This document shows positions 5,771 through 16,973 of a stretch of 64,000 nucleotides of DNA, piece by piece. The position numbers and the translations under genes were made by a program. Origin of the DNA: Escherichia coli (lineage in GTDB: Bacteria; Pseudomonadota; Gammaproteobacteria; Enterobacterales; Enterobacteriaceae); the NCBI RefSeq assembly GCF_036507355.1, contig NZ_AP027877.1. The stretch is one strand, 5' to 3'. How positions within the stretch are numbered: the first letter of the stretch is position 1; each line of letters begins with the position of its first letter. Under the pieces are notes generated by a model. It had not been told where the DNA came from. It was given only the letters and a program-made list of their open reading frames with translations, and did not search any database.

Positions 5771-6025
5771 TTAATTTGATTTATTCGCATCCATCAGCGC
5801 TTTTAACTGCTCCGGCGTAAACGGTGGTTTGCGTCGGTGCAACATCGCATGGCAATTAGGGTACACAGGCAGCAAATCATTAACTGGATCCAGCTGGTAA
5901 TCCTCTTTAATGGCTGACAGCGGCACCAGGTGATGCACATGGATAAAGCCTTCAGCGATATCACCATAGATCTTCACCAGATCAACACCGCATATTCCGT
6001 ATGAACCATACGGAGATTTAACCAT
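5771..6025 (-). CDS. Short HNH-motif protein, possibly a C-terminal remnant of a larger HNH nuclease gene
   Basis: 84-aa translation contains HVHHLVP...N...NCHAMLH (HNH-like His/Asn/His spacing) but lacks a clear first CxxC pair; AT-rich; its start overlaps the start of the divergent HUH gene. Confidence 0.4.
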   Translation of the reverse strand: MVKSPYGSYGICGVDLVKIYGDIAEGFIHVHHLVPLSAIKEDYQLDPVNDLLPVYPNCHAMLHRRKPPFTPEQLKALMDANKSN

Positions 6026-6593
6026 GACCTACAAATACAACCCCTTCTGGCAGCAACGTATTCGTGAGACGGTGCGGCACGCACTGAATGTTCATCCCCG
6101 CCTGACGGCATTGCGGGTTGACCTGCGTCTCCCGGATGTACCGGCAGCAACGGACGCAGCTGTGATATCCCGCTTCATCAATGCCCTGAAAGCCCGAATC
6201 GACGCTTACCAGAAACGTAAGCATCGGGAAGGTAAACGCGTGCATCCCACAACCCTGCATTACGTCTGGGCCCGGGAGTTTGGGGAGTGCAAAGGTAAAA
6301 AACACTATCACCTGATGCTGCTGGTCAACCGGGATACCTGGTGTCGTGCCGGTGATTACCGCGCTCCGGAGTCTCTGGCCGGGATGATTAAACAGGCGTG
6401 GTGCAGTGCCCTGGGAGTGGATGTCGGGTGCCATGCCACGCTGGTGCATTTTCCGGCCTGGCCGGCGGTGTGGCTGGCGCGTAATGATGACACCGGCTTT
6501 CAGCAAGTGCTGGAACGTGCTGACTATCTGGCGAAGGAGTATACCAAAGCTCACTGCACCGGTGAGCGCAATTTTGGCTGTAGCCGGAGTTGA
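6024..6593 (+). CDS. YagK/YfjJ-like (inovirus Gp2-type) protein with HUH-like motif, probable rolling-circle Rep-type nuclease
   Basis: 189-aa ORF; KKHYHLMLLV resembles an HUH motif (His-hydrophobic-His-hydrophobics); resembles YfjJ/YagK proteins of CP4-type cryptic prophages from memory. Confidence 0.55.
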   Translation: MTYKYNPFWQQRIRETVRHALNVHPRLTALRVDLRLPDVPAATDAAVISRFINALKARIDAYQKRKHREGKRVHPTTLHYVWAREFGECKGKKHYHLMLLVNRDTWCRAGDYRAPESLAGMIKQAWCSALGVDVGCHATLVHFPAWPAVWLARNDDTGFQQVLERADYLAKEYTKAHCTGERNFGCSRS

Positions 6594-6846
6594 GCACGAC
6601 TGGCGCGCCAATATCCGGCAAACCAAAAGTATGGGTTGTTGTCTGGCGGCAACGATGTATCCACTCGCCCACTGACTGTTTTTTACGTCAGTGTTCCATT
6701 GTGTGACAACCACAGTGCTGTAACAGCAACCAGCCTGCTTTACCCAAACTCCAGTCCAGATTTTAACTGAACCGCCATTCACACCCTGACCACGCTGCCC
6801 GTACCGGGACGGCTGTTGCCTGCGTGTCGTCTGGCGGCTAAGGAAT

Positions 6847-7254
6847 ATGACTATGTACGCAAAATCCTTTATCGCTCTTGATGGCAACGGACGTCTGACG
6901 GGCGCCCGTACTGCACAGGCCGCACCTTATGCTCACTACACCTGCCACTTGTGTGGCAGTGCACTCAGATACCATCCGCAATACGACACTGAACTTCCCT
7001 GGTTTGAACACACTGACGACAGGCTGACAGAGCACGGTCAACAGTGCCCTTATGTCAGGCCGGAGCGCAGAGAAATACAGTTGATTAAACGTCTGCAGCA
7101 ATTCGTACCGGATGCCTTACCCGTGGTGCGTAAAGCCAGCTGGCACTGCAGACAATGTCACCACGATTATTATGGGGAGCAGTACTGCACACACTGCCAG
7201 ACCGGAGGATTCAGTATTCCCCGGACAACTCAGGAGGAAATATGCGAATTCTGA
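6847..7254 (+). CDS. Cys-rich zinc-ribbon protein, paralog 1
   Basis: 135-aa ORF with CHLCG...PWFEH...WHCRQC...YCTHCQTG; same architecture as the next gene. Confidence 0.5.
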   Translation: MTMYAKSFIALDGNGRLTGARTAQAAPYAHYTCHLCGSALRYHPQYDTELPWFEHTDDRLTEHGQQCPYVRPERREIQLIKRLQQFVPDALPVVRKASWHCRQCHHDYYGEQYCTHCQTGGFSIPRTTQEEICEF

Positions 7255-7676
7255 ACTGTTATATGGCGAATGACAGCAAAGGCCATTTTGTTACGGCGAA
7301 AGAAGCTGCGAAGCACAACCGACAGGACGTTTTGTGCTGTGTGTCCTGTGGATGCCCGTTAACACTTCAGCGGGGCAATGACGGACAACCACCGTGGTTT
7401 GAACATGACCAGATGACTGTCGCTGAAAAAATCCTGCTGCGATGTACCTGGCTTGACCCGGCGGAGAAAGAGGCCCGTCGTTTGCATCTGCAGGGCATGA
7501 CGGTTCCGGATTATACGGTGAAGGTGAGAAAGTGGTTTTGTGTGATGTGTGACGAAGATTATGAGGGGGAAAAGTGCTGCCCACGCTGCGGTACCGGGGT
7601 ATACAGCAGGGCGTGGGGGCGGCAGGAGGTGCCGTCGGAAGATGCCAGGGCTGATAATCCGTTACAGAGGCTGTAA
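7242..7676 (+). CDS. Cys-rich zinc-ribbon protein, paralog 2
   Basis: Start ATG at 7242 preceded by GGAGG RBS and overlapping the last codons of paralog 1; CCVSCG...PWFEH...FCVMC...CCPRCGTG. Confidence 0.5.
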   Translation: MRILNCYMANDSKGHFVTAKEAAKHNRQDVLCCVSCGCPLTLQRGNDGQPPWFEHDQMTVAEKILLRCTWLDPAEKEARRLHLQGMTVPDYTVKVRKWFCVMCDEDYEGEKCCPRCGTGVYSRAWGRQEVPSEDARADNPLQRL

Positions 7677-8009
7677 TGGTTGCCTCCGGAGCAGTTTGCG
7701 GTGATGCCTTTCCCGGGAATGGATTGCCAGTGCGGGGACTGTGGAGCTTAATTCCGGTGTTGGTGGCCTTTCCGTTGATTTTATGCCAACAGCCCCCTGT
7801 GACTGACAGGCTGCCTCGTCATTCCATTCGTATCTCCAGTAACAGGGGGTTGTATTGTATTTTATTGTGCCGGTTCAGGTGTGCGTTTCCCGGCGCGTCT
7901 GCACCGGCTTAACCAAATTCAACAGGGATAAAATAGTGGTAAGCGTACAGCCTGAACCGTCTGGTCAGAATCTGACGAATTAGACAAAGTGGTGTCCACC
8001 AAATAAGTA

Positions 8010-8411
8010 GTGGGAACCAAAGTGTCAGATATGCAGAAAAATGTGACTCCCGGCAGGCGAAAAGGCTGCCCTAATTATCCTCCCGAATTTAAACAGCTGC
8101 TCGTTGCTGCCTCCTGTGAACCCGGGATATCCATCTCAAAACTTGCTCTTGAAAATGGCATTAACGCCAATCTGTTGTTCAAATGGCGACAACAATGGCG
8201 CGAGGGAAAGCTGCTATTACCTTCTTCAGAGAGCCCCCAGCTACTTCCTGTGACTCTCGATGCAGCTGCCGAACAGCCAGAATCGCTCGCAGAGGACCCG
8301 GAAACCCTCAGTATCAGCTGTGAGGTAACGTTCCGGCACGGGACGCTCCGCTTCAATGGCAATGTCAGCGAAAAGCTCCTGACTCTGCTGATACAGGAAC
8401 TGAAGCGATGA
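8010..8411 (+). CDS. IS66-family accessory protein (orfA / TnpA-like)
   Basis: 133-aa ORF with HTH-like N-terminus (ISKLALENGINANLLFKWRQQW), typical of IS66 orfA. Confidence 0.7.
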   Translation: MGTKVSDMQKNVTPGRRKGCPNYPPEFKQLLVAASCEPGISISKLALENGINANLLFKWRQQWREGKLLLPSSESPQLLPVTLDAAAEQPESLAEDPETLSISCEVTFRHGTLRFNGNVSEKLLTLLIQELKR

Positions 8412-8755
8412 TCCCGTTACCTTCCGGGACCAAAATTTGGCTGGTTGCCGGTATCACCGATATGAGAAATGGCTTCAACGGCCTGGCTGCGAAAGTACAA
8501 ACGGCGCTGAAAGACGATCCCATGTCCGGCCATGTTTTCATTTTCCGGGGCCGCAGCGGCAGTCAGGTTAAACTGCTGTGGTCCACCGGTGACGGACTGT
8601 GCCTCCTGACCAAACGGCTGGAGCGTGGGCGCTTCGCCTGGCCGTCAGCCCGTGATGGCAAAGTGTTCCTTACGCAGGCGCAGCTGGCGATGCTGCTGGA
8701 AGGTATCGACTGGCGACAGCCCAAGCGGCTGCTGACCTCCCTGACCATGCTGTAA
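8408..8755 (+). CDS. IS66-family orfB (TnpB-like)
   Basis: 115-aa ORF; MIPLPSGTKIWLVAGITDMRNGFNGLAA... is the IS66 Orf2 signature; start overlaps the orfA stop (ATGA). Confidence 0.75.
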   Translation: MIPLPSGTKIWLVAGITDMRNGFNGLAAKVQTALKDDPMSGHVFIFRGRSGSQVKLLWSTGDGLCLLTKRLERGRFAWPSARDGKVFLTQAQLAMLLEGIDWRQPKRLLTSLTML

Positions 8756-8804
8756 ATCTCTTTATCCTGGTTGTCACAGAATAAGCCCGGTAAAATACGG
8801 GCTT

Positions 8805-10190
8805 ATGAACGACATCTCTTCTGACGACATCTTCCTGCTAAAACAGCGCCTGGCCGAACAGGAAGCGCTGATCCACGCCCTGCAGGAAAAGCTGAGCAAC
8901 CGGGAGCGCGAAATAGACCATCTGCAGGCGCAGCTGGATAAACTCCGCCGGATGAACTTCGGCAGTCGTTCCGAAAAAGTCTCCCGCCGTATCGCACAAA
9001 TGGAAGCCGATCTGAACCGGCTTCAGAAAGAGAGCGATACGCTGACTGGTAGGGTGTATGACCCGGCAGTACAGCGTCCGTTGCGTCAGACCCGCACCCG
9101 TAAGCCGTTCCCTGAATCACTACCCCGTGACGAAAAGCGACTGTTGCCTGCGGCGCCGTGCTGCCCGAACTGCGGCGGTTCACTGAGCTATCTGGGCGAG
9201 GATACCGCCGAACAGCTGGAGTTGATGCGTAGCGCCTTCCGGGTTATCCGGACGGTACGGGAAAAACATGCCTGTACTCAGTGCGATGCCATCGTGCAGG
9301 CACCTGCACCTTCGCGGCCCATCGAGCGGGGTATCGCCGGACCGGGGCTGCTGGCCCGCGTGCTGACCTCGAAGTATGCAGAGCACACCCCGCTGTATTG
9401 CCAGTCAGAAATATACGGCCGGCAAGGTGTGGAGCTGAGCCGTTCACTGCTGTCGGGCTGGGTGGATGCATGCTGCCGGCTGCTGTCTCCGCTGGAAGAG
9501 GCGCTTCATGGCTATGTCATGACTGACGGCAAACTCCATGCCGATGATACCCCGGTCCAGGTACTGCTGCCGGGTAATAAGAAGACGAAGACCGGGCGGT
9601 TGTGGGCGTATGTTCGTGATGACCGCAATGCCGGGTCAGCGTTGGCACCTGCAGTGTGGTTCGCTTACAGCCCGGACAGAAAAGGCATCCATCCGCAGAC
9701 TCATCTTGCTTGCTTCAGCGGTGTGCTGCAAGCGGATGCGTACGCCGGGTTCAACGAGCTGTATCGCAATGGTGGGATAACGGAAGCTGCCTGCTGGGCT
9801 CATGCCCGCCGAAAGATCCACGATGTGCACGTCCGCATCCCGTCAGCACTGACGGAAGAAGCCCTAGAGCAGATCGGTCAGTTGTACGCCATAGAGGCGG
9901 ATATAAGGGGAATGCCGGCAGAGCAGCGGCTTGCTGAACGTCAGCGAAAAACGAAACCGCTGTTGAAATCCCTGGAAAGCTGGTTGCGTGAAAAGATGAA
10001 GACCCTGTTCTTCGGCTCTGGCCATGGTGGTGAGCGGGGAGCGCTACTGTACAGCCTGATCGGGACGTGCAAACTGAATGACGTGGATCCAGAAAGCTAC
10101 CTTCGCCATGTGCCTGGCGTCATAGCAGACTGGCCGGTCAACCGGGTCAGCGAACTGCTTCCGTGGCGCATAGCACTGCCAGCTGAATAA
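8805..10190 (+). CDS. IS66-family transposase (orfC / TnpC), probably carrying an internal in-frame deletion
   Basis: 461-aa ORF with leucine-zipper N-terminus, CxxC...CxxC zinc motif and DDE region; about 50 aa shorter than typical IS66 TnpC, with the conserved region before LFFGS.GGERGA apparently missing. Confidence 0.7.
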   Translation: MNDISSDDIFLLKQRLAEQEALIHALQEKLSNREREIDHLQAQLDKLRRMNFGSRSEKVSRRIAQMEADLNRLQKESDTLTGRVYDPAVQRPLRQTRTRKPFPESLPRDEKRLLPAAPCCPNCGGSLSYLGEDTAEQLELMRSAFRVIRTVREKHACTQCDAIVQAPAPSRPIERGIAGPGLLARVLTSKYAEHTPLYCQSEIYGRQGVELSRSLLSGWVDACCRLLSPLEEALHGYVMTDGKLHADDTPVQVLLPGNKKTKTGRLWAYVRDDRNAGSALAPAVWFAYSPDRKGIHPQTHLACFSGVLQADAYAGFNELYRNGGITEAACWAHARRKIHDVHVRIPSALTEEALEQIGQLYAIEADIRGMPAEQRLAERQRKTKPLLKSLESWLREKMKTLFFGSGHGGERGALLYSLIGTCKLNDVDPESYLRHVPGVIADWPVNRVSELLPWRIALPAE

Positions 10191-10428
10191 CACATCCCCG
10201 TCAATACGGCCCTCGCTGTACGCTTACTTTTGTTCGGACTGCTTATGGCCTTTTTCCACTGGTGTAGCAGGAAAGTTAACCGGCTGCCACCATGAGATGA
10301 CGTGTAAACCGTGCAGGCATGTTTTCACGTGGTGACGCTTTCATTGGGGGTCTACGCCGGAACCCCAATATTGTTCACATACATGAATTTGAAAAACTAA
10401 GCGATACTGCTGTCCGTACCTTATAAAC

Positions 10429-11787
10429 TTATTTCAACGCTTCCGGCAGCGTCACAATCCACAGTTCACTGTCAGACTCCGGTTTCTCCAGTGGCTTCAC
10501 TCTGAGGGTCGTTTCAACCTGCTTGTCGTCAAGCGTCAGCTTTCCTTCCGCGTTCACCCGATAATCCTTGAATGTCTTGCCCTCGACCGGATGTTGCATC
10601 GCCACCTTCACGCCAAAGTCGTTATCGTTCGCCACCGCCAGCGTTTTGCTGTCGATCAGCGCCAACCCTTCAGCCTTCTCCTGCTGCCAGCCCAAGGAGC
10701 GCAGATCAACAACCTGCGTTTTCTGCGCAAGGGTAATGCCGCGCTGTGACAGGGTTTTCTCATCATCAAACTCCGGATACTCACCCGGCTTGTCGAAGCC
10801 TGACAGGTCGCTCGCCTTATTGAGATCGACCTCGTAAATCAGGTTACGCATTCTGTTGTTTTTATCTCTTCCCTGTTCGATCAGCAGGATGTGCTGGTTA
10901 TCGAGCGCCACGATGTCTCCGATTTTAGCGTCGCTGTTTTTGCTGTAGGCCGCGCTGTCGATAGGATAACCGTACATCGCGGTTTTTCCGCTTGCCGGAT
11001 CGAAGCTCACCAGACGCGTAAACAGCGCCTTTTTCTTGCTCTTAGCGTCGATATCCAGCGTACTTTGCACGGCGACAATAATACGCCCGTCCGGCATACG
11101 GGTGAGGCCTTCAAAGCCGCGGTTCGCCTGACGCCATTTGAGGATATTTGGCAAACCGCCCGCAATCGCTTTTTCCCCTTCCGCCGCCTGCGGACCGTGG
11201 ATTGCCAGGATTTTCCCTTTACTGTCGATGTTAATCAGGAACGGGCCATACTCATCGCACAGCCAGTAACCTCCTTTACCATCCGGAGTGATCCCTTCCG
11301 TATCCAGCCCGCGATTATCCCCCTTCAGTCTATGTAACGTGTCGCTGAAGGCCACTTCATTGGTGGAGCCAATCACGTCGCTTGCCAGCGGCAGACCGTT
11401 GATCGCGCCTTTATCGTCATGCAGAGGACGGGGATCGATGGCCTCCGCTTTGCCGTTTTGTACACGAATCGTCATCAGCAGCGGCGCGAAATCTGGCGTA
11501 ACGAAAATTTTAGTTTCGTTTTTCCCCTCTTTCGGTGAATCCGCGTTCGGACCGCGATCGGTAATGGTTGCGAATGTCAGGGCATCGCCCTGTTTACCGG
11601 TGAACAGCAGGCCAGAACCTATCCCAACCGGAAGGCCGTTCGGGAATGCACTGGCAAATGCGCCGGCGTAGTTCACGTGCGTGCCTTCTGGAAAACTGAC
11701 GACATAGCGCTCAGCCGTAGGTTGTGCCGCCAGGGCAGAGAAAGAGAGCGTACAACCGATTAGCACGGGAATAATTTTTCTTTTCAT
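10429..11787 (-). CDS. Secreted phytase-like / esterase-like beta-propeller protein
   Basis: ORF 10429..11802(-); signal peptide MKRKIIPVLIGCTLSFSALAAQP; sequence resembles 'esterase-like activity of phytase' family proteins from memory; no catalytic motif verified. Confidence 0.45.
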   Translation of the reverse strand: MKRKIIPVLIGCTLSFSALAAQPTAERYVVSFPEGTHVNYAGAFASAFPNGLPVGIGSGLLFTGKQGDALTFATITDRGPNADSPKEGKNETKIFVTPDFAPLLMTIRVQNGKAEAIDPRPLHDDKGAINGLPLASDVIGSTNEVAFSDTLHRLKGDNRGLDTEGITPDGKGGYWLCDEYGPFLINIDSKGKILAIHGPQAAEGEKAIAGGLPNILKWRQANRGFEGLTRMPDGRIIVAVQSTLDIDAKSKKKALFTRLVSFDPASGKTAMYGYPIDSAAYSKNSDAKIGDIVALDNQHILLIEQGRDKNNRMRNLIYEVDLNKASDLSGFDKPGEYPEFDDEKTLSQRGITLAQKTQVVDLRSLGWQQEKAEGLALIDSKTLAVANDNDFGVKVAMQHPVEGKTFKDYRVNAEGKLTLDDKQVETTLRVKPLEKPESDSELWIVTLPEALK

Positions 11788-12059
11788 ATTGTTAGCATCC
11801 ATAAAGTGAAGATCACACTACACCATAAAGAAGAAACGAGTCAGGAAAATGACATCGAATGGCAACATGCGCGGGCCTGAGGCCAAAGAAATGTAAAACA
11901 CTGTTGTTATTTGTAACAACGGAAACATTTACGGAAATTATTTGTCTTTCTTCGTGATCAAAAATGCTGTGTCTTGTTGGATTGGAGTGATGAGGGCTGC
12001 GTTTAGGAAACGCCCTATATTGTACGGTTGCATTATCGCGGTAGGGGTAATGCACGTGT

Positions 12060-12200
12060 CAGTATGATGAGCTGACCACACTCACGTGGGTGGACTGGTA
12101 TAACAATCGACGATTGCTGGAAAGGCAGGGCCATATCCCACCGGCAGAAGCAGAAAAAGCTTATTATGCTTCCATCGGAAACGATGATCTGGCAGCCTGA
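12060..12200 (+). pseudogene. IS3-family transposase C-terminal remnant
   Basis: Translates to ...QYDELTTLTWVDWYNNRRLLERQGHIPPAEAEKAYYASIGNDDLAA*, the typical C-terminal tail of IS3-family OrfB; the upstream part of the gene is absent. Confidence 0.4.
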
Positions 12201-12298
12201 GTTCACAGATAAAACACTCTCCAGGAAACCCGGGGCGGTTCACTTAGCCGCGTGTCCATTATTGCTGGATAAGATCATAACGAGGTAATGACTCCAAC

Positions 12299-12802
12299 TT
12301 ATTGATAGTGTTTTATGTTCAGATAATGCCCGATGACTTTGTCATGCAGCTCCACCGATTTTGAGAACGACAGCGACTTCCGTCCCAGCCGTGCCAGGTG
12401 CTGCCTCAGATTCAGGTTATGCCGCTCAATTCGCTGCGTATATCGCTTGCTGATTACGTGCAGCTTTCCCTTCAGGCGGGATTCATACAGCGGCCAGCCA
12501 TCCGTCATCCATATCACCACGTCAAAGGGTGACAGCAGGCTCATAAGACGCCCCAGCGTCGCCATCGTGCGTTCACCGAATACGTGCGCAACAACCGTCT
12601 TCCGGAGCCTGTCATACGCGTAAAACAGCCAGCGCTGGCGCGATTTAGCCCCGACATAGCCCCACTGTTCGTCCATTTCCGCGCAGACGATGACGTCACT
12701 GCCCGGCTGTATGCGCGAGGTTACCGACTGCGGCCTGAGTTTTTTAAGTGACGTAAAATCGTGTTGAGGCCAACGCCCATAATGCGGGCTGTTGCCCGGC
12801 AT
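12299..12802 (-). CDS. insB: IS1 InsB (expressed as InsAB' by -1 frameshift)
   Basis: Translation ...[74 protein letters not shown]... matches IS1 InsB. Confidence 0.85.
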
Positions 12803-12996
12803 CCAACGCCATTCATGGCCATATCAATGATTTTCTGGTGCGTACCGGGTTGAGAAGCGGTGTAAGTGAACTGCAGTTGCCATGTTTTACGACAGTGAGA
12901 GCAGAGATAGCGCTGATGTCCGGCGGTGCTTTTGCCGTTACGCACCACCCCGTCAGTAGCTGAACAGGAGGGACAGCTGATAGAAACAGAAGCCAC
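12721..12996 (-). CDS. insA: IS1 InsA
   Basis: [43 protein letters not shown]... identical in character to IS1 InsA. Confidence 0.85.
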
Positions 12997-13065: not shown

Positions 13066-13911
13066 TTATTCATTTAAAGATTCAAGAAATGTCCAGCCTT
13101 TATGAGTAACATAATACATTTGTCCTTTTGCCCCTCTTTCAATCACAAAATCAAAGGATAACAGTTCGTTAAGTGCGCCCTCCCAACGGGCTACCTCTCT
13201 AGCCGAACTTCCACCAAAGGATTGATTTCCCGCTTGAATATCCGTGCCACCTAAATGCCTTATCACATAAATTGTTCCGCTATCATCGACACATGCCAAT
13301 TTCAGCAAACTGAGTGCATCGGCGGACAAATTACTTTCTGGCAAAGATTGACTTGTATTCGCATCAGGAGAATTGTTAATGGTAGATATAAGAGAAGACA
13401 AATAAGGGCTACTAGAAATAATTATCGAAAGTTGCCTACGGACTTTGTCTTTGAAATCAGATAAGTCATTAAAAGACTCTATCAATCCCTTTTGCATGCA
13501 CTCAATTTTGAACAATTTAAGAGACTCATATTGTTCTCTATCAAGGCTTTCAGGGGCAACAGGCTTTGAGGAAAAGTAAATCATTGCCGGTTTTCCCGCA
13601 TTCAAATGACGGTGAATTTCTTCGACTGTTCCGCTGGCCTCGTTCCCAGTCGGTGAGCCTAGACGAGTCCAAAACACACCGATTAATAAATCACAATCTA
13701 CTAATAATCTTTGATTAATCAACTCCTGAGGCCTAACTCCTAATTCGGGTGATGTATGAGTTTCCCATCCAATTGGTGTCAACATTACTTTTGAACGAGC
13801 TGAATTTATATCATTCCACTCATGGATCATTTCACGAATGACTTGTCTCTCTTCAGCGACATCACCAGGAGAAGCAATCATTACAGGGATAACAGTTGCT
13901 GTGTAAGCCAT
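13066..13911 (-). CDS. Hypothetical protein with N-terminal DUF4062-like (TIR/STIR-like) domain and uncharacterised C-terminal domain
   Basis: 281-aa AT-rich ORF with GGAGAG RBS; N-terminus VMIASPGDVAEERQVIREMI...CDLLIGVFWTRLGSPTG...SGTVEEIHRHLNAGKPAMIYFSS fits the DUF4062 pattern as I recall it; start lies 14 nt after the recombinase stop; IS1 ends 14 bp past its stop. Confidence 0.5.
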   Translation of the reverse strand: MAYTATVIPVMIASPGDVAEERQVIREMIHEWNDINSARSKVMLTPIGWETHTSPELGVRPQELINQRLLVDCDLLIGVFWTRLGSPTGNEASGTVEEIHRHLNAGKPAMIYFSSKPVAPESLDREQYESLKLFKIECMQKGLIESFNDLSDFKDKVRRQLSIIISSSPYLSSLISTINNSPDANTSQSLPESNLSADALSLLKLACVDDSGTIYVIRHLGGTDIQAGNQSFGGSSAREVARWEGALNELLSFDFVIERGAKGQMYYVTHKGWTFLESLNE

Positions 13912-13924
13912 AAACTCTCCATAT

Positions 13925-14485
13925 TCAATCGGTAATAGCTGCTACAGTCGCTCTTGAAACGCCATATTGACGCGCTAACGCACTGATACTCAAACCGCTA
14001 TTCTTTTTCTCTAAAATCTCTCTACGGGCTTCTGACGCGATTTTAGGAGGTCTGCCCAATTTCTTACCTTCGGCTTTTGCTCGTGATAGTCCCGCCTGAG
14101 TGCGCTCAATCAGCAGATCACGCTCCATCTCCGCAACCGCGGCGAGCATAGATAATAGCAACTTCCCAGCGGCAGAAGTGAGATCTGTGTTACCAAGCTG
14201 GTGGACAAGAACCTTGATATTACGGTCAGCCAGCGCCCTTACCGTTTGCAGGACGTCAATCGCATCACGCCCCAGACGATCAAGCTTCGCTACCACCAAC
14301 GTTTCACCATCGCGGATTTTATTGAGCATTTCAGAAAATGCTTTACGTTGCATTGCCGGAACCTTCCCGCTAACAACATCGGCAAACCAGTAATCAATTT
14401 GCCACCCAGCCTGCCCAAGCTCCAGCCGTTGGTTCTCAGTATCCTGCTGCGATGTCGAAACACGTCCGTAGCCAAAAGTTGCCAT
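13925..14485 (-). CDS. Small serine recombinase (resolvase/invertase family)
   Basis: ORF 13925..14554(-); true start likely MATFGYGRVSTSQQDTENQ (catalytic Ser motif GYxRVSTxxQ) with GGGGAG RBS; C-terminal HTH SISALARQYGVSRATV; about 186 aa. Confidence 0.75.
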   Translation of the reverse strand: MATFGYGRVSTSQQDTENQRLELGQAGWQIDYWFADVVSGKVPAMQRKAFSEMLNKIRDGETLVVAKLDRLGRDAIDVLQTVRALADRNIKVLVHQLGNTDLTSAAGKLLLSMLAAVAEMERDLLIERTQAGLSRAKAEGKKLGRPPKIASEARREILEKKNSGLSISALARQYGVSRATVAAITD

Positions 14486-14507
14486 TGTTATCTCCCCATC
14501 TGACCCC

Positions 14508-14604
14508 TGCCAGAAAACGAGGCCAACATTAGGATGGCCTGCCAGAAAAGCCAAGGCTATTTTTCCAACAGTGTGAAAGCGTGCGATTGGGAGGTGCCAG
14601 AAAA
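14508..14604. repeat. Three direct copies of TGCCAGAAAA upstream of the serine recombinase start; candidate res-like binding sites/operator
   Basis: TGCCAGAAAA at 14508-14517, 14540-14549 and 14595-14604 (spacings 32 and 55 bp), 23-120 bp upstream of the recombinase start codon. Confidence 0.4.
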
Positions 14605-15460
14605 CGGTCGATTGATGACACCATCAAACACTAACAGTGTGCCCCGGCAACGCGCGCCTGCAACGGTTGTCTCGGATGAGCAAAATCTTAGGGTTTTCTC
14701 AGCGACCCCTGACGCGCGGGCACGCACATGCTCACGGGGGCGCGGGCGAGCTATACAGTTGAGGGAGGGGCAACCATAAGCGTGCAATTTTTCAAGCCGG
14801 GGATTCAGCTATAGGCTAACGGTAGAATGCGGCTTGTAGAGGGTTGTGCGCACATACCCAGTACAATCGCATTACTCCACGCGCACAAACCCCGGAGAGC
14901 CGCTTGCGGTGGGGGTTTAAGAGGTACAATTTTTGGTTCGGGTCATAAAGGACTTTTGAGAGCTGACTTAGCTTATTTAAACTGCATTCGTCTTGGCTAT
15001 GGAGACACGAGGCAGCTCAAGTTTTGTTCAAAACTTTGCAATATTTTGGTTCGATCTCATGTTCTCGTGCTAAAGAAATCAGCACTCGATCAAATTTTCA
15101 TTTTTTTTCTGAAACATTGACATACAGCCTAAGCCTTAAGGCACGTAGGGTTGGTCGAAATTTCCCTTTGACAACCTCAATTTAACCTCAAAATCAACCC
15201 TTGTACTGCAAAGAATCCTAACTAGAATGCTGAACATGTAGGGGGGAATCTTATTAACACACCCTATATGTTGTGCTCATGTATAAATGATGGGCATAAA
15301 AAAACCGGAGTCACCTGCGTGAATCCGGTCTATGAAGCATGACCGCCATGAGTCTGCAAACTCATAACGATTGTTAGCCTCACTATCGTTTCTAACGGCT
15401 CGATTGTGCCCGGCTTGGTTGGTTATGTAAACAGTAAGATAAAATCAAAAGGAACGATCC

Positions 15461-16375
15461 ATGCTTATTCAGAAAAAGCGTATTCGAAATATTGATAATT
15501 ACATACCTAACTTTGATGGCCGTGATATCTACATTGCACATTCTTTGCCAGATGCGGGGAAAACGGACTCTATTGGTTTCTCAAGTCAAAGAGCTTTAGG
15601 TGAAGAAGTCCTCCCCAAGATTTTAGGGCCAATAACCAGATTCAATGCTAATGGCAAATCAGTACCTGACAAAACAGCACCTAAAGAAACTGCATACAGA
15701 CAAATTTCATGGACTAGAAAGCAATGGATCGGAGGGGGCGCAACTCAAGAAGTTACTGACACTCGTGAAATTGAGTATAAGCGCTACAAGAGAATCCTCA
15801 CCCCTCCACCAAGCATAGAGTTAAAGATTGTAGAGAATCTTCAAGGGGAGAAGTTGATCATCTCTCCAAAGCTAAGTTTGACAGCTAACAACAAAGAGTT
15901 AGTGGCTCACTGCATTAATCTTTTTTTAGAGCTTTTTGGGTTGTGCGAAACTGTTGACGACCAACTTAATACCATCGTTAAAAGTAAATCTATAAAACTA
16001 AACTGGAGCCTCCTGCCTCAGGGTCAACAGCCTTGGAGTACTATCGGTTCAAAAATCCTTTCAGCTATTAAGATCAGGGGAAAGGGCAATACCGCTGTTG
16101 TTGAAGGCAGACTTGAACTTATCAATAGTAAAAAACCAGATTTCGTAGCGGTTGGGCAAGCTGGGTTCCAAGGCTACGTGATATTTGGGTTCACAGGCCA
16201 AAACATTTACGTGCTAGAAAGCTCACAATGTAATAACGCAACTTATATACTTAACAATAATTGGCAGCAGTTATCCCAGCTAACTAAAGCCGAAATACTA
16301 GACGGAAACTTGCACCATGCCCGTGTCATCCACCGTGTAAACTGGGCAGCAGAAATACTTAAATACTTACCATAA
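15461..16375 (+). CDS. Hypothetical protein (304 aa), AT-rich orphan gene adjacent to leuX
   Basis: Uninterrupted 304-aa ORF with RBS AAAGGAA upstream; strongly AT-biased codon usage; no motif I can assign; ends ~510 bp from the tRNA 3' end. Confidence 0.5.
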   Translation: MLIQKKRIRNIDNYIPNFDGRDIYIAHSLPDAGKTDSIGFSSQRALGEEVLPKILGPITRFNANGKSVPDKTAPKETAYRQISWTRKQWIGGGATQEVTDTREIEYKRYKRILTPPPSIELKIVENLQGEKLIISPKLSLTANNKELVAHCINLFLELFGLCETVDDQLNTIVKSKSIKLNWSLLPQGQQPWSTIGSKILSAIKIRGKGNTAVVEGRLELINSKKPDFVAVGQAGFQGYVIFGFTGQNIYVLESSQCNNATYILNNNWQQLSQLTKAEILDGNLHHARVIHRVNWAAEILKYLP

Positions 16376-16888: not shown

Positions 16889-16973
16889 TGGTGCCGAAGG
16901 CCGGACTCGAACCGGCACGTATTTCTACGGTTGATTTTGAATCAACTGCGTCTACCGATTTCGCCACTTCGGC
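16889..16973 (-). tRNA. leuX: tRNA-Leu (CAA anticodon)
   Basis: Reverse complement reads GCCGAAGTGGCGAAATCGGTAGACGCAGTTGATTCAAAATCAACCGTAGAAATACGTGCCGGTTCGAGTCCGGCCTTCGGCACCA: 85 nt, long variable arm, CAA anticodon loop, 3' CCA. Confidence 0.9.

Follow-up and report, generated by a model that had tools for sequence, protein, structure and literature searches.

A gene for a secreted protein of the Pfam family PF13449 was studied in a 64,000-nucleotide stretch of Escherichia coli DNA (contig NZ_AP027877.1, assembly GCF_036507355.1), referred to here as the window. The gene occupies 10429..11787 on the minus strand and encodes 452 amino acids (aa) plus a stop codon, as established from the list of open reading frames (ORFs), the Pfam match and identity to a RefSeq protein. 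From a conserved Pho box, a signal peptide and the company kept by related domains, it is judged probable that the product is a PhoB-activated, Sec-exported periplasmic phosphoesterase which scavenges phosphate. Both the gene and its family label are already in databases, through the RefSeq name and as orf34, the designation under which it was listed in 2020, without a function, in the SRL pathogenicity island of Shigella flexneri (PMC6980539). The prediction of a Pho box is the only addition made here.

A conserved Pho box upstream of an intact gene

The Pho box is the binding site of PhoB, the regulator of the phosphate-starvation response, and has the consensus CTGTCATA(A/T)A(T/A)CTGTCA(C/T). 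Upstream of the gene, a predicted PhoB site (ATGTCATTTTCCTGACTC; 11838..11855, minus strand) matches 11 of the 14 specified positions of CTGTCATNNNNCTGTCAY and is found in place of a -35 element. A -10-like hexamer read from the sequence, TATGGT (11822..11827, minus strand), follows exactly 10 nt downstream. This layout is identical to that of phoA in E. coli K-12, in which CTGTCATAAAGTTGTCAC is followed by 10 nt and TATAGT. On the same scale, the proven PhoB promoters of K-12 score 13 (phoA), 12 (phoB), 14 (pstS), 12 (ugpB), 11 (phoE), 14 (phoH) and 10 (phnC). The box of ugpB, TTGTCATCTTTCTGACAC, differs hardly at all from that of an Enterobacter orthologue, ATGTCATTTTTCTGACAC. A sigma-70 scan of positions 10150-12350 found no complete -35/-10 promoter, a result which is consistent with an activator-dependent promoter and is uninformative on its own.

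To score the box across relatives, matches at the 14 specified positions were counted within 150 nt of the start codon in 78 orthologous loci. A box of at least 11/14 was present in 92% of these loci and one of at least 12/14 in 77%, nearly all of them beginning 61-80 nt before the start codon. In shuffled upstream regions the same thresholds were reached in 1.5% and 0.13% of cases, and in other 150-nt windows of the same loci in 0.6% and 0%, respectively. Boxes of at least 12/14 were found in 23 of 29 genus-level groups. When seven diverse upstream regions were aligned, a single block proved alignable, and this block was the Pho box (ATGTCATTTTCCTGACTC in the window, CTGTCATTAATCTGTCAC in Cronobacter and CTGTCATGACATTGTCAT in a Serratia-like genome). 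No conserved gene neighbourhood was found, as [Enterobacter] lignolyticus, Pantoea, Cronobacter, a Serratia/Yersinia-like genome and E. hormaechei all differ in this respect. Since the neighbours change between genera, control must reside in the upstream region of the gene itself. The conserved box predicts that the gene would be turned on under phosphate shortage. The original prediction, made from the letters of the window, had suggested a part in phosphate scavenging or host interaction; the conserved Pho box gives the former independent support, and no support was found for the latter.

The coding sequence below this promoter is uninterrupted. In the ORF list the minus-strand frame runs from 10429 to 11802, or 457 aa counted from the first ATG, and has no internal stop. 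The conserved start is the second ATG (11787-11785), and the in-frame ATG upstream of it at 11802 would add 5 aa. The 452-aa product is 100% identical to RefSeq WP_000823243.1, which begins at the second ATG. Furthermore, the equivalent of M6 is the sole in-frame ATG in most Enterobacter orthologues, and a GGAT Shine-Dalgarno-like motif, overlapped by the upstream ATG, lies 9 nt before the second one. Based on the RefSeq start, the pattern in Enterobacter and the spacing of GGAT, 452 aa is the better length and the ATG at 11802 is probably not used.

The ratio of nonsynonymous to synonymous substitution rates (dN/dS) against Enterobacter and Lelliottia orthologues was 0.09-0.11, indicating a constrained, functional gene and no pseudogene; as it was measured against Enterobacter, this value describes constraint on the family and not the period since transfer into E. 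coli. The frame of 452-457 aa originally noted is therefore real and intact, and its length agrees with the 452 aa counted from the second ATG. A pseudogene had been named as one outcome which would overturn that proposal, and both the open frame and the dN/dS value speak against one.

Export, fold and family of the product

A Sec-type signal peptide spans residues 1-20 (MKRKIIPVLIGCTLSFSALA; 11728..11787, minus strand). It was judged by eye from the sequence and from the N-termini of 29 orthologues, with a structural model as a further guide. The N-terminus consists of MKRK, IIPVLIGCTLSFSALA and A|QPT, which provide a positive n-region, a hydrophobic core and an A-x-A cleavage motif. Its n-, h- and c-regions divide as MKRK / IIPVLIGCTLSFS / ALA|A, with small residues at -3 and -1, and cleavage by signal peptidase I is predicted after A-L-A or L-A-A. 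A20, the alanine at -1, is invariant in the 29 orthologues, and no twin-arginine (RR) motif was found in the N-terminus MKRKII. In the AlphaFold2 model, residues 1-20 form an isolated helix of low predicted local distance difference test (pLDDT) score. The clear Sec signal peptide described in the first reading of the sequence is thus borne out by inspection. A lipoprotein reading of 'LIGC' was rejected: Cys12 lies only 12 residues from the start, and its lack of conservation in the orthologues makes a lipoprotein unlikely.

PF13449, 'Esterase-like activity of phytase', matches residues 60-396 over profile positions 4-284 of 284 with 148.6 bits (cut-off 27.6; E 4.6e-43), and is the sole Pfam match at E<=1. 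The NCBI/RefSeq name of the protein is the same as that of Pfam, and the family originally named is thus the correct one. No family model in NCBIfam matched the protein, and no match to the SdiA-regulated/YjiK-like model (PF06977) was obtained in Pfam.

An AlphaFold2 model built with 85 homologues has a mean pLDDT of 95.9 and a predicted template modelling score (pTM) of 0.92. The structures it resembles most are those of YjiK, glutaminyl cyclase and a calcium-activated nucleotidase, and these nearest folds are presumably five-bladed, not six-bladed, propellers. A Foldseek search against the PDB returned only generic propellers, with template modelling (TM) scores of 0.37 or less and no phytase or PhoX among the best matches. 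Direct and profile searches of PDB sequences likewise returned generic propeller blades only (Pizza designs, Drp35, PknD, and YjiK at E 0.38). When the PF13449 family profile was compared with PDB sequences at E<=10, no solved phytase and no PhoX were retrieved. On these grounds the family name should not be taken literally, as neither the protein nor the PF13449 profile matches a beta-propeller phytase or PhoX in sequence or fold. 'Phytase' is a label only.

In the PF13449 family, Asp and Glu residues are conserved throughout the domain. Here, D77, D162, E164, E179, E226, D291, E304, E373, D388 and D390 are shared by 90% or more of 85 diverse homologues and are invariant in the 29 orthologues. 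The invariant acidic and basic motifs are TDRGPN (76-81), DTEG (162-165), CDEYGP (177-182) and RQxNRGFEG (219-227), and further invariant positions are R258, D291, EQG (304-306), KAEG (371-374) and NDNDF (387-391). These invariant residues recur where successive blades begin, a pattern which would be expected of a metal-and-anion binding site at the mouth of the propeller.

Relatives in other organisms are linked to phosphorus chemistry in several ways. Among 26 multidomain relatives from other phyla which were scanned, PF13449 is fused to 5'-nucleotidase/metallophosphoesterase modules in three and to a ParB-like nuclease in one. In some cyanobacteria it is fused to the alkaline phosphatase Psip1 (PMC11098088), and in Nodularia a PF13449 protein is among the genes most strongly induced by phosphate limitation (PMC9846622). 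Other architectures include giant proteins of the Bacteroidetes type, which combine PF13449 with 'choice-of-anchor I' propellers and a type IX secretion tail, and relatives of 590-700 aa whose N-terminal ~200 residues have no Pfam assignment.

Distribution, origin and genomic context

Among complete E. coli genomes, the gene together with 58 nt of upstream sequence was found in 2262 of 5426 (~40%), each best match being at least 99% identical. The carriers include ST131 and Nissle 1917. At least 80% of this query is held by 2190 of the 2262 carriers, and 72 fall below 80% coverage. In the same set 66 copies are plasmid-borne, and PLSDB contains 64 E. coli plasmids with a copy that is at least 99% identical. 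One of the plasmids seen, the IncHI1B poultry plasmid pYLMB10a (NZ_CP073989.1), has insertion sequence (IS) 1 on both sides of the gene (9001-10359), in a composite-transposon-like arrangement.

The corresponding leuX/KpLE2 region of K-12 MG1655 contains no such gene, in keeping with the initial view that it does not belong to the K-12 core. In MG1655 (4518372-4520324) fecI-ykiE-IS1F is followed directly by yjhU, whereas in Nissle 1917 the order is IS66 / gene / IS3 fragment / IS1 / ykiE-fecIRABCDE. The two orders are consistent with IS1-mediated loss in K-12, or with later insertion elsewhere.

Outside E. coli, orthologues of 60-91% identity are chromosomal and present in single copy in Enterobacter, Lelliottia, Pantoea, Buttiauxella, Cedecea, Serratia, Yersinia, Pectobacterium, Mangrovibacter and others, with more distant ones in Wohlfahrtiimonas, Tolumonas and a Neisseriaceae metagenome-assembled genome (MAG). 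The E. coli gene was also seen at 99% identity in a MAG contig labelled 'uncultured Ruminococcaceae', and an enterobacterial-type orthologue at 78%, with a typical Pho box, in a contig of 'Chryseobacterium sp. 18061'; both look like enterobacterial contamination.

When the window was compared with the orthologous loci by blastn, positions 10425..11942 (minus strand) were found to be homologous to the Enterobacter/Lelliottia chromosomal locus at 83-87% identity. The homology spans the gene from immediately beyond the stop codon to ~155 nt ahead of the start codon, which means that the gene entered E. coli with its native promoter. Of the orthologues sampled, the closest is only ~87% identical in DNA. 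Between the end of IS66 and the stop codon lies a 78-nt remnant of a DUF6404-family gene (10230..10307, plus strand), mapped from the annotation of HCM-25C-3. As this remnant is not homologous to the Enterobacter context, the direct donor was another, unsampled relative, and the remnant itself is probably a relic of the donor locus. The captured upstream region also contains a perfect palindrome, GTTGTTA-CAAA-TAACAAC (11903-11920, minus strand), which lies ~50 nt further upstream than the Pho box. In Enterobacter it is retained only in part (GCTGACACAGATAAAGAC), and it could serve a second regulator or be an additional, weak site for PhoB.

Some E. coli contigs carry another PF13449 gene, a divergent one (P0078; gene at 6001-7353), and its 450-aa product is 71% identical to the protein described here. 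This gene is located ~2 kb from the gene for heat-stable enterotoxin STb and ~5 kb from the genes for heat-labile enterotoxin A/B, and presumably resides on virulence plasmids of enterotoxigenic E. coli. The position homologous to the Pho box holds only a degenerate match, GATTCATATATCTGAAAC (9/14), and the -10 hexamer after it, TAAAAT, is a better one.

In the window the gene is enclosed by the mobile elements that were originally reported around it. On the 3' side it is bounded by a complete IS66-family element with tnpA, tnpB and tnpC (7939..10227, plus strand), delimited by inverted repeats at 7939-7960 and 10206-10227, by its ORFs and by the Nissle 1917 annotation. On the 5', promoter side a fragment of an IS3-family transposase (~12069..12200, plus strand) was mapped from the annotations of Nissle 1917 and HCM-25C-3. 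Beyond it, the insA and insB frames of IS1 (91 and 167 aa; 12299..12996, minus strand) were taken from the ORF list, and the Nissle 1917 annotation has IS1 at the corresponding position. The island is integrated at leuX, a tRNA-Leu(CAA) gene located by ARAGORN (16889..16973, minus strand) 5 kb from the gene. The island lies between the fim/nan genes and ahr-yjgR-lptFG-pepA, and ahr and yjgR are arranged as in K-12 and HCM-25C-3.

Other cargo is present on both sides. Between IS1 and leuX three genes are found: one for a 281-aa protein whose DUF4062 match is below threshold (13066-13911, minus strand), one for a serine resolvase (13925-14554, minus strand) and a 304-aa ORF without a Pfam match (15461-16375, plus strand). 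This segment (13066-16375) has a low G+C content (~46%), is unlike the fec operon found after this IS1 in Nissle 1917, and may represent a small module of a mobile or defence kind. On the far side of IS66, positions 6024-7676 hold a YagK/YfjJ (inovirus Gp2-like) gene and then two adjacent DUF7828 + zinc-ribbon genes, a backbone which also adjoins IS66 in Nissle 1917, HCM-25C-3 and the Shigella SRL island.

Proposed function, alternatives and known systems

From this evidence we infer PhoB activation in vivo, a catalytic activity, its metal dependence and its substrate. The product would be a soluble periplasmic PF13449 beta-propeller exported through Sec. Its gene would be transcribed alone from a PhoB-dependent promoter, and the protein would be made when phosphate is scarce. 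It would then hydrolyse a phosphorylated compound in the periplasm, releasing phosphate to be taken up by Pst. As a phosphoesterase it would be metal-dependent, probably on Ca2+. Candidate substrates would be nucleotides or nucleic-acid-derived phosphodiesters, general phosphomonoesters, and phytate, with nucleotides and phosphodiesters slightly favoured over phytate. E. coli acquired the gene and its native promoter from a relative resembling Enterobacter, in which it was chromosomal. IS66, IS3 and IS1 have since moved it between the leuX island, the fec region, plasmids and the SRL island of Shigella.

Several observations weigh against this proposal. In the window alone a Pho box with three mismatches is no better than chance (6 found, 7.9 expected), and the box was therefore given weight only through its conservation in orthologues and its position. 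The E. coli box has one mismatch more than that of Enterobacter, in the second half-site (CTGACTC against CTGACAC), and because of it PhoB control could be weaker in E. coli. Among the 29 genus-level groups scored, no recognisable box was found in two Pectobacterium loci and in Samsonia. In addition, the top two structural matches, YjiK and glutaminyl cyclase, are non-phosphatases, YjiK being without a known function. The literature searched reports no enzymatic activity for any PF13449 domain, and contains no functional study of, or published expression data for, this protein. Finally, catalysis in the fused proteins could belong wholly to the partner domain.

Taken at its word, the family name would make the protein a genuine, specific phytase, a calcium-dependent beta-propeller that would dephosphorylate phytate (myo-inositol hexakisphosphate) on plant material or in the gut. 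The predicted Pho regulation would suit such an enzyme, orthologues are commonest in plant- and soil-associated Enterobacterales (Pantoea, Serratia, Pectobacterium, Buttiauxella), and three of four phytate-degrading isolates of Pantoea brenneri have an orthologue (PMC12697123). Set against the failure of protein and profile to match any beta-propeller phytase, these points leave a true phytase unlikely. Somewhat less improbable, though still a minority view, is that the protein releases no phosphate at all and works as a scaffold or by binding, as an enzyme resembling lactonases or cyclases, or as a factor directed at host or envelope molecules, with a motif that does not work or reflects an indirect link to phosphate stress. 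The sequence and position of the box have, however, been kept through ~29 genus-level groups while the surrounding DNA diverged, which is hard to explain unless PhoB control has been selected. The repeated fusion of the domain to phosphoesterases and the induction of cyanobacterial members by phosphate limitation also argue against a role outside phosphate metabolism.

The gene could also be a hitch-hiking passenger of IS rearrangements, intact through recent arrival, poorly expressed and contributing nothing. All E. coli copies are at least 99% identical, pointing to recent spread, and the gene is always found within IS debris. The extra mismatch of the E. coli box relative to Enterobacter would fit as well, as would the shortened versions, seen in the 72 genomes of low coverage and in several truncated protein clusters. 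On the other hand, ~97% of carriers still hold 80% or more of the query, the gene has been retained in ~40% of complete genomes, successful lineages such as ST131 and Nissle 1917 among them, and the promoter layout is intact. A mere passenger is accordingly regarded as very improbable, and a PhoB-activated periplasmic phosphoesterase is preferred.

A wider proposal, advanced more tentatively and with greater doubt than the phosphoesterase function itself, is that stand-alone PF13449 proteins constitute a distinct, unrecognised class of PhoB-controlled periplasmic phosphoesterases in Enterobacterales, besides PhoA, PhoD, PhoX, PafA and Psip1, built on a YjiK/SCAN-like propeller and not on that of phytases or PhoX. 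If this were true, ~40% of E. coli, including ST131 and Nissle 1917, would own a phosphate-scavenging activity that K-12 lacks, and one missed by work on the K-12 Pho regulon because the gene is absent from that strain. The gene is one of the more widespread accessory genes of E. coli without an assigned function, and it travels beside ferric-citrate uptake genes and on plasmids. Should Pho control be confirmed, the E. coli Pho regulon would gain a strain-variable member, and a large family with a borrowed name would receive its first functional anchor. An active phosphoesterase would moreover bear on the acquisition of phosphorus by gut, urinary and plant-associated enterobacteria.

Comparison with characterised propellers places the protein apart from each of them. 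Bacillus PhyC/TS-Phy and PhoX are likewise secreted beta-propellers, rich in conserved acidic residues and belonging to phosphate-starvation responses, and it is this resemblance to Bacillus-type phytases and PhoX that gave PF13449 its name. Nevertheless, they have no detectable sequence-profile relation to the protein and are not among its best structural matches. PhoX is Tat-exported, unlike this protein with its Sec-type signal peptide. YjiK (an SdiA-regulated domain; PDB 3qqz) and the glutaminyl cyclases (3mbr, 3nok) share only 11-17% identity with it. The protein is ~200 residues longer than these, has no Pfam match to their families, and a cyclase role would give no reason for a Pho box. 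The calcium-activated nucleotidase SCAN-1/apyrase (PDB 2h2n) is 13% identical, and no relation at the sequence level was found.

The locus itself has close counterparts. In the Shigella SRL island the same order is seen, with orf34, the IS66 genes orf35-37, and then Gp2/YfjJ, Hha and AlpA genes (PMC6980539), and in Nissle 1917 the same arrangement adjoins fecIRABCDE. The window copy shows no sequence difference from WP_000823243.1/orf34 but resides in a leuX island without the fec operon; IS1, the DUF4062-like gene and the resolvase gene follow it. In its predicted promoter, the second half-site, CTGACTC, is weaker than that of the orthologues, and the score of 11/14 is within the K-12 range of 10-14. 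As in phoA, pstS, ugpB and phoE, an 18-bp box with two 7-bp direct repeats 11 bp apart replaces the -35 element, and the -10 hexamer lies 10 nt downstream, as in promoters of the Pho regulon.

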